This document shows, in pieces, positions 1 through 9,000 of a DNA stretch of 36,977 nucleotides; within the stretch, counting starts at the first letter, position 1; each line of letters opens with the position of its first letter. The position numbers are program-made. This DNA comes from an uncultured Pseudomonadota bacterium (lineage in GTDB: Bacteria; Pseudomonadota; Alphaproteobacteria; Rs-D84). Where the stretch lies: NCBI GenBank assembly GCA_900313285.1, contig OMQP01000017.1, positions 1 to 36,977 on the forward strand. Reading direction: 5' to 3'.

Positions 1-3000
1 ATTCAAAAGATAAAATCAACAAATATACTTCAATAGTACAGAAATCTAACAAAAACACATATAAATTGATACCAATCTAACCGACATACGGATTAACAGT
101 GCTTTTTTGGTGGTTTTAATAAAGTTTAATAATTTTAATTTTTGCTTGATATTCTGCGGGTTGTGTGCTACAAATCAATTAATCGAGAATAACAAAAACA
201 GGTAGCAAAAAATGCTGTTAGTAGCAAATAGGTAGCAAAAATGACATGCGGATATACCGTTAAAAAAGGGGTTGATAATGAATGTTGATAAAAAACAAAT
301 CATAAATGCTCAACAACACAATTGTGCGCATTGTGGTACAAAAGGTGCAAATTTTTATGATATAAAATACAGTGTTATAGATGAAAGTGAAAATAAAAAA
401 CTCGGAATTCTGACCATACGTTGTAGCTGTTGTCATAAAAGCACAACACATTTAATAAAAAATATTTCAAGTTACAGTAAAAATTTTGAATACGAAGGCT
501 TTAGTGGATCTTCTAAGGGTTTTTATTGGTGTGGTGATTATCATACAATAACAGAAAATTTTGATGAGTTGGACAATAACATAATAATGAGTATACCTAC
601 GCCAACATTTATCATAGATGCTGGCATCCCAAAAAAATTACGTGACCCTTTGATAGAAGCAGGAAAATGTGTAAAAGAAAATGCGCTTGTTGGTGCATCT
701 GCTTGTGTACGTAAAGCAATATATGAATTTTTATTAATGGAAGGTGCTACAGGTGATAATTATGATGAAAAAATAAAATCGATAAAAGGTAATTGGGCAC
801 ACTTATCAGATTATTTGGACGTTTTGAAAGGGATAAAGGGGGTTGTATCTGATCAGGTTCACGAAGACAGTTTTGCAGCTTTTTCTTCTGATGAAATTAA
901 ATATTATGTGGATGTGTTGGAAGAAATATTCCGAGAGGTGTACGTGATCCCTCAACAAAGACAAGACAGAAAGAAAGCAATTTTTGCGAAATTCAATGCC
1001 GTAAAACAAGATAAGGAAGTAACACCAAATGCAAAATAATCACATAAATTTCACGGAAAAAAACTTGTTAGAATTACCTGTCCCAACAGGTGATAAAGCG
1101 GCTGTATATTATGATACTGGTCAGGCAGGGTTGTGTGTGATGATAACATACGGTGGTACCAAAACATACTATTTTTACACTAAGTTCTTGGGCGTTCCAA
1201 AACGGGTAAAAATTGGTAGGGTTGGTGTAACTAAACTGATTGATGCCAGAATGAAAGCTCGTGAATTGCGAACGGAAGCAGATAAAGGTAATGATCCTAG
1301 TCAAGAACGTAATGAAACACTGCGTGACATGACATTAAAGCAATTCTTTAATACCCAATATTTTCCACGACATGTTAAGGTATATACGCGCCCAAAAAGC
1401 CAAGCAAAAGCCGAAACGATGTTCCGTAATTACTTAGGCGAATTTCATAACCGTAAAATGATAAGTATAACCAGGGCAGATATGGAACGTATGCATGCTG
1501 GTTTACGTGACAGAATAAGTCTTTATACGGCTAATCGTACGCTTGCGCTGGTAAAGCATATGTATAACAAGGCAATAGAATGGGGATATCCGTCCCGGCA
1601 CGGCAATCCAGCTGTTGGAATTAAAATGTTTCGTGAAAGATCTCGTGAACGTTTCTTGTTGCCAGATGAAATTAAACGTTTCTTTGCGGCACTTAATGAA
1701 GAACCAAACGAAGTATTTAAAAATTACGTTTTGTTATCATTATATATTGGGCAACGTCGTCAAAATATGTTATCAATGCGCTGGTCAAATGTGGATTTAG
1801 ATCTTGGATATGTTTTGTTCCCAGATTCTAAAAACGGCGACCCACAAAAAATACCATTGATAATTCAGGCAAAAGACATACTGACAGAAATGCGGAGGTG
1901 TGCGATAAATGATTGGGTTTTTCCAAGTGAAGGTAGTAAAAGTGGCCATTTAGAAGATTTGCATCGTCCTTGGTACGCATTGTTAAAAAGAGCAGGTATA
2001 GAAGATTTGATATAACTGGCGCTAGTTTGCATATAATTGGCAAAGCACTTGGTGATAAAACAAGTATTGCCACCCAAGTCTATTCTCGTCTAACCATGGA
2101 TCCGATCCGTGATTCTATCCAACGTGGTGCAGATAAGATGCTAGAGTTTGTAGAATCATGAACAAATGCAAAAATTATTCTTTTTTATGTATTTAATAAA
2201 AACGATGCAGAAATATTATTATATTAATTGTTAAAAATAACACCTAATCCCATAAAATCATCGTGTTATAAATTGTTAATAGTGGGGAGGATAATGCTAG
2301 CATTATGATAGCTGCCTGTGTTCTAATTTTTTGAACAACGGATGTAAATGAAAGGTATTGTCGTCAAAATCGAACATGTCTAATTCAGATTTGTTTGAGG
2401 ATGAATATACTATATCCATTGTATGCGAAGTTATGCCTAATACACCTACAGTATACAAAACGTTTAGTAATGCCTTTAATGCTTCTTGTTCTGCAAAAGA
2501 ATTCCCTTTTGCATCAATGAAGCCTTGTAATATTTTATCTTCATCCCCCGATAGGTTAACAGAAAACAAACAATTAGATATCTCTTCAAATTTACTAAGA
2601 ATTTCTTTATAGGAAAAGCTATTACCCATTACGTCTCTAATAGCTTTTATATACACGTCAACGTTTGGGTATAAATTTATCCATTCATCTTTTAAAGAAT
2701 CTAACATTTCTTTACGATAAATAGTTTCAGCATTTAAAATATGATTTGGAACAATGTATTCACTGCCGTCTGCTTGAATAATACATAAGTTTATAAATTT
2801 GATGGCGTCTCTGGGTCTCATAAATGTTCTTTTTAGTATATAATCGTAACCCTTTTCGCCGGCTATTTCACAATCAAATAGAGCATCAAATGATATTTTT
2901 GTTTTCCTCTCATACTGATATTCAAATAAATAATTTAATCTTTTATTTATCAGTTCTTTCAACATAGAATATGTCCAATTTAACTTTAATGTAAATGCCA

Positions 3001-6000: not shown

Positions 6001-9000
6001 TACCGTTTGATACCGCCCATCTTCAGTTTTAGTGGAAGTTTTTGTTCTATTTGCTCCAACAATTGCCCCTTGCCACCAGCCCATTTTAATACAGGGCGGC
6101 ATTCTATATAATCTGGTAAGCTTGCCGGTATCGCTATCAAAATTTATCCTTTCCTTATTGCTATATTAGAAGAAAACACCACATAAAATCAAGGATTTTG
6201 TATTATAAATAATTCAGTTTATGTGTTATAATTACCAACGAATAATAGGAGGAATAATATGGCGAAAGGATTGGTGTATTTTGCAAGAAATTCTGCATTT
6301 CAGCATTTAACAAAAATTGGCAAGACAACCAAATCAGCTGTTGAAGAACGTGGTTTGTCAGCCAGCAATGTACCAGAAGATTTTGACTATTTGATGGTGC
6401 TTGCCTGTGAAGATTGTGATTGGGTTGAAGAGAATATACATGAACAATTTGCGAAATTTAGTCACTTTTCTGCGTCTGGAAGAAGAACCGAGTTTTTCTG
6501 GAGTGGTTGTATACAAGAAGCAATGAATTTTGCTAAAAAATTGAAAGGCGTTACAGTTGTAACGGATAAGGAAACAGAGAAGGTGACAATCACTGTTAAC
6601 GGTAAAAAACAAACAATGAGACGACCAAACACCACTTTTGAAATGATTGGTTTGAACAAGGGTACAAAGATTTTATTTGAAAATGACCCTGACGAATGGG
6701 CTATTGTCAAAGACGATAAAAATCAGGTGTCGTACAAAGGGAAAGCACAGACAGCTATATCAAATGTATCAAACAAAAAGTGTGGGCGTCCAACTAATGG
6801 TTTCGTACACTTCTTTTACAAGGGGAAACGATTGTTTGATATGCGGCCAGATATGCAGAATGATAACTAAGAGGTGTCAACTGCCCCTTATCTTTTTAAA
6901 AATATTATTTTTGATAATTTGTAATAGTTACTTATTACCCTTGGCGCGGTTATGAGTTTTGCACAACATTTGACAATTTGATATGTCTGTTGCCCCTCCT
7001 TTTGACCAGGCGGCAACATGGTCAGCGTCCATTTCCGCCATTTTCCAGATTTTATTCTTATTGGCATCATGTCCTAGTGCACATAATGGACAATTTGATA
7101 GGCCTCGAGTTTCCGCATCTTGTGTTTGCTGTGCATAGATGGTGCGTTTTGTTGCCTCATCAAAAACCCTGACATCCAACAACTTCGTGTCTGTGCAACC
7201 ACCAAGGATATACTCAAATACCCCTTTGCGATTTTTAACATAAGGATCGCTATATAATTGTTTAACTAAGGCGTCCACTTTATTTATATCATATGCTTTT
7301 TTATGGTATTCTTCATATAACCGTCCCCAATCCAAACCACGCATTTCGAATTCAACGTTTTTAAATACACTTTCAATCCAATTTAATACAGTATTAAAAT
7401 AAGTCTTTAGTTCGGAAATGTCTTTGTTTCTGCGGTGAAAGCCCATATACTTATCAATATTGCCTTTACTGACCCATTCTAGTGCAGTGTGTAAGAAATC
7501 TTGCCGATTGACACTACCAGAAATATAAGATGCCCATTTTTGAATGTTGGCATTCTGACTATTACTAAATTCTTCTTTTGCTGCTGTAACAAAAGGCCCA
7601 GAATACAATGCATTTAATAGTTCTTGATTGTTCAATGGTACTCCGGCGATATTAATGGTCTTAAACCATTCTTTGATTTCTGTTTCTTCACCACTGCATT
7701 CATAAATAAGTAATTTTGTATTTAATATACGTTCTTTTATTTCTTCGTCTAATCCGGAAAAGTACTGTTGCATTCCATTTTGATCTTTAATAGCAAACTT
7801 GTTGGTCACAAAACGTCCAATGCTTGTAATACGTTGTTGCCCATCCAATACTTCAAATTCATTATCTTTTACTTTAACGAAGTAAATGATACCTAAAGGA
7901 TAACCTTTAATAACGGAATCTATAACATCGGCTTCACGATTTTGTTCCGCATATATGTAGTTGCGTTGGTATTCCGGTTGAATGGTTAACTTACCAGACA
8001 TTCCAAAAAGTCCTTTGCCCTCTAATTCATTGTAGACAAATCCATCGCAAATTTCACGAATAGTTATGTCTGTATGTAATTCTGTTTTCATTGTACTCCA
8101 CCTTTCTTTTTACGGATGAAAATGCGTGTATATAAAGATTGTACACATCTGCCGTCCGAGTTAATAAAATAATTGTTTTTGCCATCGTTTCGTAACAGAT
8201 TAGCGTTTTCATTGGTCTTATTACCAGAACTACCCGTTCTTTCGCCACTTTGTTTCATTTCCCAATAATCATTGTATTTTCTCGTGTCTGGTACACCGTC
8301 GTGACATCCACGTTGTGTTGAACCCAAAATCTCAAATTGTTCTGGACAATACTTATCTAAAAATGTAATTGGAACTCCCATAATACCATCATAATCTGAT
8401 GGAATTGCGTCCGAATATGGAACATCTACTGCATCATAATTATCATATTTTTGGTAACCTTGACCACGAATTTCTTTATGTTTACTATATTTAATGTTTT
8501 CTTCCATAGTCATTAACTGGAGAGGCCGGTGTCTACGACCGTGGTCTAAATTGGTAAACCAACAGCCACTTGCTCGTGCATAAACAATGTTATCAATAAT
8601 TCTATATTTACTACCAGATTTTGCCGTTTTTATTAATTCTGTTGCAACATGTTCTGGTACATTAAATAAAATATCAAAACCCATTGGCATTGTTCCTATC
8701 CACATTTTATTATCTTTTATAAGAGGAAAAACTTCTTTACAACCAGCAGAATTTTTATTTCCAATAATAATAAACTTTTTATGGGCTTCCATAATCCATG
8801 CCAAAAATTCTCTGAACAATGAAAATGGAGGGTTTGTAATAATGATATCAGCATCATCACGTAATTTTTTAATTTCATCACTTCGAAAATCGCCATCGCC
8901 TTTTAAATATGTCCACTCTAAATCTTCGATGTTGATAACCCCATTTTTATTTGTGTCGTGCGTTAAGGTAAATATTTTTCCATGAGTTTTGGTTTTATTT

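Follow-up and report, generated by a model that had tools for sequence, protein, structure and literature searches.

A probable DpnII-kind restriction-modification cassette with a compact predicted endonuclease, and a separately moving Sll1717-family ATPase beside it, in an alphaproteobacterial tRNA-Asn island

Restriction-modification (RM) cassettes of the DpnII/MboI/LlaDCHI kind (dpnM-dpnA-dpnB) carry genes for an alpha-class methylase, a beta-class methylase and an endonuclease of ~280-300 aa, in that order and with translationally coupled junctions, and the hallmark of DpnA is the methylation of single-stranded DNA. Small Type IIP enzymes such as PvuII, MunI and BstEII are built on a PD-(D/E)XK core, and the LlaJI/McrBC systems follow a pattern of methylases, nuclease and NTPase. 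The KAP P-loop NTPases (PF07693) include the classical KAP proteins, EF_KAP and Tmn, which are membrane-bound, and in a 2026 study, KAP P-loop NTPases that act as single genes and have an uncharacterised C-terminal region were shown to confer phage resistance, their genes lying beside small serine recombinases (PMC13552941). The DNA considered here, referred to as the window, is a stretch of 36,977 nt from an uncultured Pseudomonadota bacterium of the alphaproteobacterial lineage Rs-D84 (contig OMQP01000017.1 of GenBank assembly GCA_900313285.1, positions 1 to 36,977, forward strand). At 2303-6140 it contains four minus-strand genes, g1 to g4, in the order methylase, methylase, nuclease and NTPase, which an earlier sequence-only reading had taken as a possible NTP-dependent restriction variant or, failing that, as an RM cassette coupled to a separate NTPase module. 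The four genes probably represent two independent modules placed head-to-tail in an island at a tRNA-Asn gene, namely an RM cassette of the DpnII kind and a stand-alone ATPase of the Sll1717 family.

Four co-oriented minus-strand open reading frames (ORFs) at 2303-6140 were confirmed by ORF listing. The first gene, g1 (5208-6140, 310 aa), encodes a DpnM-like, Dam-family (alpha-class) N6-adenine DNA methyltransferase, and g2 (4430-5215, 261 aa) encodes a beta-class N6/N4 DNA methyltransferase of the DpnA/HinfI/CcrM lineage. The third gene, g3 (3897-4433, 178 aa), encodes a PD-(D/E)XK nuclease that is the presumed restriction endonuclease of the cassette, and g4 (2303-3883, 526 aa from its ATG) encodes a soluble Sll1717-family (KAP/ORC-like) P-loop ATPase. 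The g1 and g2 genes overlap by 8 nt (5208-5215) and g2 and g3 by 4 nt (ATGA, 4430-4433), and g3 and g4 are separated by a 13-nt spacer on the same strand (3884-3896, TAA-AAAAGGAAATAAA-ATG) that holds an AAGGA ribosome-binding site. The gene coordinates and the three junctions given in the sequence-only reading proved exact on ORF listing and reading of the sequence, and every motif it quoted for the four proteins was found at the expected position. An alternative TTG start for g4 at 3970 would overlap g3; 3883 is the better start because 31 homologs begin at the position of the ATG. No terminator-like hairpin was found between g3 and g4 in a terminator scan, and g4, lying 13 nt behind the nuclease gene, is probably co-transcribed with the RM operon by read-through. 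A candidate sigma-70-like promoter lies upstream of g1 at 6202-6229 on the minus strand (ATAACA-16-TATAAT, recognised by consensus only, at 10/12 positions), and promoter-like sites in the region are no more numerous than expected from shuffled sequence, which makes this candidate a weak one.

The boundary between the two modules falls at the g3-g4 junction. In blastn comparisons with the sister loci L001-L005, L007 and L073, the window aligns only over ~3891-6206 (70-89 % identity), and because this DNA homology to the closest loci ends at the stop codon of g3, the mobile unit is taken to be a three-gene RM cassette of ~2.3 kb (3895-6206, minus strand), as the window and the sister loci without g4 have no other DNA in common. 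The RM proteins of L001, which has no g4, are 94-96 % identical to those of the window, while those of L081, which has g4, are less similar at 90-93 %. Nucleotide identity between the window and L081 is itself a mosaic, being 94-98 % in the g4 block (2101-3900), 75-86 % in the RM cassette and 64-73 % on the integrase side, and the breakpoints coincide with the boundaries of g4, including the g3-g4 junction. These identity blocks, together with the varied occupants of the position behind g3 in sister loci (described below), indicate that the RM cassette and g4 recombine independently. The tight spacing of g3 and g4 thus reflects the end of the cassette and not an obligate partnership.

The distribution of g4 leads to the same result. 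Outside the element of the window, 86 loci with g4 relatives were surveyed (80 metagenome loci and six found by exact look-up), and g1, g2 or g3 adjoined g4 in none of them; only L081-L083, which are the same element in other samples, carry g1-g3 beside g4. The 112 immediate neighbours of g4 from 81 scanned loci fall into 91 Pfam families, of which the most frequent, integrase, was seen 3 times. Close relatives are found in quite different company: P0124 (74 % identical to g4) adjoins a ParB_N gene and P0123 (78 %) an HpaII RM system, both without the cassette of the window, P0125 (57 %) stands between two Dcm methylases and McrBC, and P0134 (50 %) has serine recombinases, Gabija and a Type IIG enzyme in its vicinity. 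More distant relatives (~30 % identity) are carried by 147 plasmids, most of them conjugative and enterobacterial (Klebsiella, E. coli, Enterobacter), where they bear annotations such as hypothetical or 'DNA repair' protein and lie among insertion sequence elements near the replication region; an example is the 557-aa 'hypothetical protein' WP_000026497.1, encoded at 5983-7656 of the E. coli IncF plasmid NZ_CP081687.1 (L171). The ATPase gene is therefore independent of the RM cassette and moves as a block by itself.

A protein of 308 aa that matches nothing in Pfam is encoded ~200 nt downstream of P0134 in three genomic contexts (L168-L170) and may be a lineage-specific partner of that protein. 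It recurs in the P0134 lineage only, and no fixed partner gene of g4 was found in the survey.

The ATPase has its Walker A motif (GRTGSGKT) at residue 49 and its Walker B motif (VVCVDDLD) at residue 233, as had been noted earlier. It had otherwise been regarded as unplaceable, which was incorrect: it matches the NCBIfam model NF047389, 'P-loop ATPase, Sll1717 family', over residues 13-519 of 526 with 232.3 bits (cut-off 75), and more weakly the KAP_NTPase family PF07693 with 28.3 bits (gathering cut-off 20). The view that it lacks AAA+/McrB motifs holds for McrB, as PF07728 (AAA_5) is absent among its 15 Pfam matches, and fails for AAA+, as the predicted fold lies near HslU, ORC/Cdc6 and BrxC. 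The AlphaFold model (predicted local distance difference test score, pLDDT, 87.6) has as its nearest structures the BrxC N-terminal ATPase, HslU, archaeal PABY2304, ORC/Cdc6 and RdrA, all with low template modelling (TM) scores of 0.23-0.35. BrxC of BREX and RdrA of RADAR rank first and eighth among these neighbours and have an ORC/AAA+-like ATPase core in common with g4, but the TM-scores are 0.28-0.29 and the identity is 10-14 %, and none of the partner genes PglZ, BrxB, PglX and RdrB is present in the window. A long helical insert, modelled as amphipathic helices, separates the Walker A and Walker B motifs of the protein. The motifs QxEKD and RPRD are also conserved, and the C-terminal ~200 aa end in a conserved HPLF. 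It resembles the KAP NTPases, including the antiphage ones (PMC13552941) and Tmn, in its PF07693 match, in the helical Walker A-B insert and in a C-terminal region without a recognisable domain. It differs from the membrane-bound classical KAP proteins, EF_KAP and Tmn in that no transmembrane segment was found (maximum 19-residue Kyte-Doolittle mean 1.47) and in its curated assignment to the Sll1717 family. Among PHROGs it matches only phrog_13260, a family of unknown function, and comparison with all Protein Data Bank (PDB) chains by single sequence and by profile gave chance-level matches only.

The most likely role of g4 is that of a single-gene anti-phage or conflict ATPase, which is plausible given the KAP NTPase precedent (PMC13552941), and the island has a gene for a small serine recombinase (9441-10040) of the sort that served as the marker in that antiphage study. 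A fold like those of BrxC, RdrA and ORC, relatives beside McrBC, Gabija, serine recombinases and integrases, and the occurrence on 147 plasmids are all consistent with a function of the defence type. The strongest competing explanation, although somewhat unlikely, is that g4 has no part in defence and is a cellular or plasmid-maintenance ATPase that happens to neighbour the cassette. The frequent housekeeping neighbours of its distant relatives, the 'DNA repair protein' names and the result with PADLOC given below agree with such a role; it accords poorly with a patchy distribution tied to mobile elements (integrases, serine recombinases, plasmid regions rich in insertion sequences, and defence islands), with movement as a discrete block, with the likeness of the fold to BrxC and RdrA, and with the KAP defence precedent.

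The position 3' of g3 is occupied differently in the sister alphaproteobacterial loci, in which other genes begin ~0-26 nt past the stop codon of g3 or overlap it. Three loci have an ApeA-like gene there (L001 8555-9997, L002 8544-10010 and L073 8555-9997; 480-488 aa, PF18862), which starts 0-11 nt past the g3 stop and encodes an RNVIVH HEPN-type motif. The slot holds a GmrSD_N protein gene in L009 (8515-9612), and genes for a 222-aa and a 300-aa protein with no known identity in L007 (8553-9221) and L008 (1997-2899), respectively. A housekeeping YbaK-like gene fills it in L005 and a terminator-like hairpin in L004.

These occupants could be read as a docking slot at the 3' end of the cassette, which would capture unrelated second-line defence genes, express them by read-through and so form a coupled two-layer immunity unit in which the ATPase co-operates with restriction. 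The cassette and the ATPase would then be separate machines kept co-transcribed by selection, with g4 as a second-line sensor or abortive module that may respond to, for example, failed restriction or anti-restriction while being no subunit of the enzyme. The ApeA-like, GmrSD_N, 222-aa and 300-aa proteins so close behind g3, the recurrence of the g4 arrangement in three other samples and the g4 relatives in defence islands speak for such coupling. It is nevertheless unlikely, as the slot also receives a housekeeping gene or a hairpin, the landing of a mobile cassette directly upstream of resident genes explains the slot equally well, no co-occurrence statistics are in its favour, and g4 relatives at 74-78 % identity occur without the cassette. 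The fallback offered by the sequence-only reading, an RM cassette joined to a separate NTPase module, is compatible with the data, which extend to adjacency and probable co-transcription and not to functional coupling.

The cassette itself resembles DpnII in its gene order and in having g1 nearest to DpnM, as the sequence-only reading had recognised. In g1, EPFVGGGAVFF at residue 49 precedes DPPY at 215 (alpha order), and the protein matches TIGR00571 (E 5e-82, 275 bits against a cut-off of 115) and PF02086 (E 3.5e-58). Its nearest solved relative is DpnM (2dpm, E 2.3e-52), with E. coli Dam far behind at 1e-28. In g2, DPPY at residue 31 precedes FMGSGTTG at 217 (beta order), and PF01555 is matched with E 5e-63, so that motif order and profiles both bear out the alpha and beta classes proposed earlier. 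A Neisseria homolog of g2 has been described as DpnIIB-like (PMC4269198). The likening of g2 to DpnA, with its single-strand methylation, is by sequence. In PADLOC v2.0.0 only the two methylases match among the four genes, to the MTase_II and orphan-MTase models. The resemblance to DpnII extends to the avoidance of GATC and to ten related loci with a genuine DpnII-type endonuclease beside g3, as set out below.

The difference from DpnII lies in the nuclease, which at 178 aa is far smaller than the DpnII/MboI-type enzymes of ~280-300 aa, a contrast also drawn by the sequence-only reading. No match of g3 to the DpnII-type endonuclease family PF04556 was found, whereas the control endonuclease from L024 scored E 2.8e-111. 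The protein has PDD at residue 82 and ECK at residue 98 and matches PF20472 (PDDEXK_11) marginally, in the core region only (E 1.6e-5, 25.1 bits against a cut-off of 23.7). Residues G14, E18, D83, E98, K100 and K111 are invariant among 68 diverse homologs, down to 37 % identity, and the conserved residues form an E...D...ExK catalytic arrangement. The AlphaFold2 (AF2) model (pLDDT 88.4) has its best Foldseek matches in the PDB to BstEII, an arenavirus cap-snatching endonuclease, MunI and BsoBI, all of them PD-(D/E)XK proteins, although these matches are modest to weak (top TM-score 0.48, E 1.9e-3). Sequence and model together thus place g3 in the PD-(D/E)XK superfamily, as previously proposed, with a nuclease-like predicted fold and conserved catalytic D, E and K residues. 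The core is that of PvuII, MunI and BstEII, and the size would fit a dimer on a short palindrome; g3 differs from these small Type IIP enzymes in having no sequence similarity to any solved enzyme and only weak structural matches. Searches of all PDB chains with the single sequence and with a profile gave chance-level matches only and no sequence-related solved structure. A derivation of g3 as a trimmed DpnII-family enzyme was considered and set aside, and no homology is claimed, the comparison giving a BLASTP E of 0.016 over the catalytic ExK...GS stretch and an hhalign probability of 1.1 %.

The g3 family is very large: clustering at 90 % identity leaves more than 6,800 clusters, and an exhaustive search gave 846 at 50 % identity. 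Among 600 pattern matches in genomes, at least 569 loci were confirmed to encode a g3 relative. It is unusually conserved, at ~60-70 % identity across phyla, and relatives at 60-90 % identity occur in Campylobacterota, Bacteroidota, Verrucomicrobiota, Alphaproteobacteria, Elusimicrobia, Patescibacteria, Clostridia and Mycoplasma. No match to g3 was found in PADLOC, among the NCBIfam restriction-enzyme models or in PHROGs, and none of 50,697 phage genomes matched g3 or g4 in tblastn. The literature search found no papers on PF20472/PDDEXK_11 or on Sll1717. The nearest viral structural relatives of g3 in BFVD (A0A7S6NXM7, G8DDE9, A0A6G6XN47 and A0A0N7KVQ2) are uncharacterised proteins of ~170-215 aa (Foldseek E 1e-9 to 6e-6, ~21-24 % identity); they are prasinovirus proteins, with Bathycoccus sp. 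RCC716 virus 1 as the sole named source. One bacterial relative, P0284 (489 aa), has a D12 Dam domain fused to a C-terminal g3-type domain (residues 322-485) and is either a natural fusion of methylase and nuclease or a read-through gene call.

The genomic setting of this family was surveyed in 80 genome loci, which were searched with the four proteins of the window and of which 51 were fully flanked, with 2 kb or more to either side of the gene. A Dam-like and/or beta-class methylase lies within 2.5 kb of g3 in all 51 fully flanked loci, so that g3 was never seen there without a methylase, and a g4 relative was present in none of the 80. The commonest architecture is a beta-class methylase followed by g3; the others are Dam, beta-class methylase and g3 (the type of the window), Dam, g3 and beta-class methylase, and Dam with g3. 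In Elusimicrobia, minimal two-gene insertions of a beta-class methylase and g3 stand between housekeeping genes (L031, L045 and L078). The g3 gene is the sole nuclease-like gene of the cassette in 43 of the 51 fully flanked loci, and because it is alone in most cassettes and never without a methylase, the parsimonious reading is that it encodes the restriction endonuclease. In ten of the 80 loci (L024, L053, L058, L059, L069, L039, L040, L057, L079 and L011), eight of which are among the fully flanked 51, a PF04556 DpnII-type endonuclease lies beside g3 in the same cassette. The genes are arranged as Dam, g3, DpnII-type endonuclease and beta-class methylase or as Dam, DpnII-type endonuclease, g3 and beta-class methylase, and in L011 the methylase genes are on the strand opposite to g3. 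The two nucleases might coexist because they are redundant, or because they differ in substrate or in cut position.

The loci with two nucleases, and the lack of a match between g3 and any PADLOC or NCBIfam restriction-enzyme model, would fit a role of g3 as an accessory nuclease (nicking, single-strand-specific or of a repair type), the true endonuclease being elsewhere or absent and the methylases effectively orphan. This seems rather improbable for a gene that is the only nuclease-like one in 43 of 51 cassettes, including the minimal pairs, and that always accompanies a methylase; GATC is depleted even in the group with a beta-class methylase only, and the closest folds are those of Type II enzymes.

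The first proposal of the sequence-only reading, a single NTP-dependent restriction enzyme of the LlaJI/McrBC kind in which nuclease and ATPase would be parts of a single complex and cleavage would depend on the hydrolysis of NTP, is very improbable and unsupported: the gene order, the 13-nt gap without a terminator and the same four genes in L081-L083 agree with it, but the likeness is superficial, since ATPase homologs are consistently unlinked to these nuclease and methylase genes (in 86 loci of other lineages, and in 80 loci seen from the nuclease), an outcome that the sequence-only reading had itself named as a refutation, no McrB (AAA_5), McrC or RE_LlaJI domain was found in the four genes by Pfam search, cassettes with 94-96 % identical proteins exist without g4, and the recombination breakpoints lie exactly at the boundaries of g4. 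Nothing points to restriction by g3 needing g4.

The target of the cassette is probably GATC, as suggested by the likeness of g1 to DpnM, by the DpnII-type endonucleases beside g3 in ten loci, by the Neisseria locus described below and by the depletion of this site. In the window GATC is the most depleted 4-mer palindrome, with 51 occurrences against 109 expected (ratio 0.47). In host DNA flanking related cassettes the observed/expected ratio of GATC is 0.64 with a beta-class methylase only, 0.38 with Dam and a beta-class methylase, and 0.25 with a DpnII-type endonuclease, and in the flanks of each of these classes no other 4-base palindrome is so strongly depleted. In the 21.6 kb of flank from six loci with Dam only its ratio is 0.44, a depletion that ranks fourth. 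The four 5-mers of GANTC stand at ~0.7-1.25 in the flanks, with no clear depletion. A GANTC system, suggested by the similarity of g2 to CcrM, was rejected as a lead, since GATC is depleted and GANTC not clearly so, and since g3 has Dam-only partners in some loci.

A decayed cassette of this type appears in Neisseria. At the leuS-drg locus of N. gonorrhoeae, a frameshifted g2-like methylase gene is followed by a truncated g3 homolog (55 % identity), and the pair occupies 3197-5456 of L165 (NZ_CP119140.1, a chromosomal record that PLSDB lists among plasmids), downstream of both leuS and drg, the latter being DpnI-like. The leuS/dam/drg locus has been described (PMC4269198), and strains with Dam at the leuS locus were found to have GATC methylation by PacBio sequencing, 'a truncated MTase' being noted next in the locus (PMC6789123). 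Because the decayed g2-like and g3-like genes are present, the neisserial dam/drg hotspot is seen to have formerly held a cassette of the g3 type with one or two methylases and a nuclease; the literature treats the locus as an orphan Dam with a truncated methylase behind it, and the published descriptions name just that truncated methylase.

Several observations weigh against the interpretation of the locus as a GATC-directed cassette and an unconnected, defence-type ATPase. The evidence for GATC is indirect, and its depletion in the flanks could be due to further GATC systems that these genomes encode. The nearest solved relative of g2 is CcrM, a GANTC enzyme (6pbd, E 4e-61), although at 251 bits g2 falls below the CcrM equivalog cut-off of 830. 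In the ten loci with two nucleases the cassette does not depend on g3 alone for cleavage, and g3 could serve another function there. The tight appending of g4 (13 nt, with its own ribosome-binding site and no terminator) and its recurrence in at least three further samples (L081-L083) make a functional interplay within this lineage possible. Housekeeping genes are frequent beside distant g4 relatives, so that no enrichment in defence islands can be read from these neighbours; in PADLOC v2.0.0 g4 had no significant match, the best being E 0.003 (PDC-M28C, mad8).

With two independent modules as the preferred explanation, the first (3897-6140) would act as a Type II RM system composed of a DpnM-like methylase, a beta methylase of the DpnA/CcrM lineage and a compact 178-aa endonuclease. 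The endonuclease, drawn from a very large uncharacterised family, would replace the usual DpnII/MboI-type enzyme and is predicted to act as a homodimer that cuts unmethylated GATC, and either methylase alone may suffice to protect the host DNA. The second module (2303-3883) would be a soluble P-loop ATPase that moves alone between islands and plasmids, and in which nucleotide hydrolysis may control the C-terminal region of ~200 aa in a single-protein conflict or anti-phage role. The apparent four-gene 'system' would then be an artefact of adjacency, which calls for caution in guilt-by-association assignments within defence islands. The 178-aa nuclease family, very large and always linked to methylases, is the more useful result. 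Since the PADLOC and NCBIfam models miss g3, cassettes that use it tend to be scored as 'orphan' Dam-like or DpnA-like methylases, and confirmation of the family as GATC endonucleases would place many methylases now taken for orphans in another class and make a very compact GATC enzyme available. The Sll1717-family ATPase is an experimentally tractable candidate for a single-gene conflict protein.

The island that carries the four genes as cargo is an integrative element of ~13.7 kb (83-13795) at the tRNA-Asn gene (13720-13795). An 18-nt core, GACATACGGATTAACAGT, is present at 83-100 and again in the anticodon arm of the tRNA-Asn at 13748-13765, and GGTAGCAAA arm-like repeats lie just inside both ends (196-241 and 13640-13672). 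L081 has a matching tRNA fragment at the end of its island. A tyrosine integrase (Arm-DNA-bind_3 and Phage_integrase domains) is encoded on the plus strand at 1029-2161 in two overlapping ORFs (1029-2015 and 1970-2161), and this split is due to either a frameshift or a sequencing error; the L081 integrase is also divided into two gene calls, at a different place. A T5orf172 protein is encoded at 6259-6870. On the minus strand at 6928-9317, the gene for a 387-aa protein with GmrSD_N (DUF262) and a C-terminal HNH domain overlaps by 4 nt that of an EcoRI-family adenine methylase (PF13651, E 2.5e-118), and the two, which are flanked by the genes for the T5orf172 protein and the small serine recombinase, may be a second RM-like pair with the DUF262-HNH protein as the nuclease.

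An Rfam scan of the window returned three tRNAs only, with no match in a conserved, non-coding-looking stretch of ~175 nt at 16080-16255, which lies outside the RM cassette. This stretch, in an intergenic region between divergent genes, is 77-81 % identical to counterparts at L001 10086-10263, L002 10101-10278 and L073 10098-10265.

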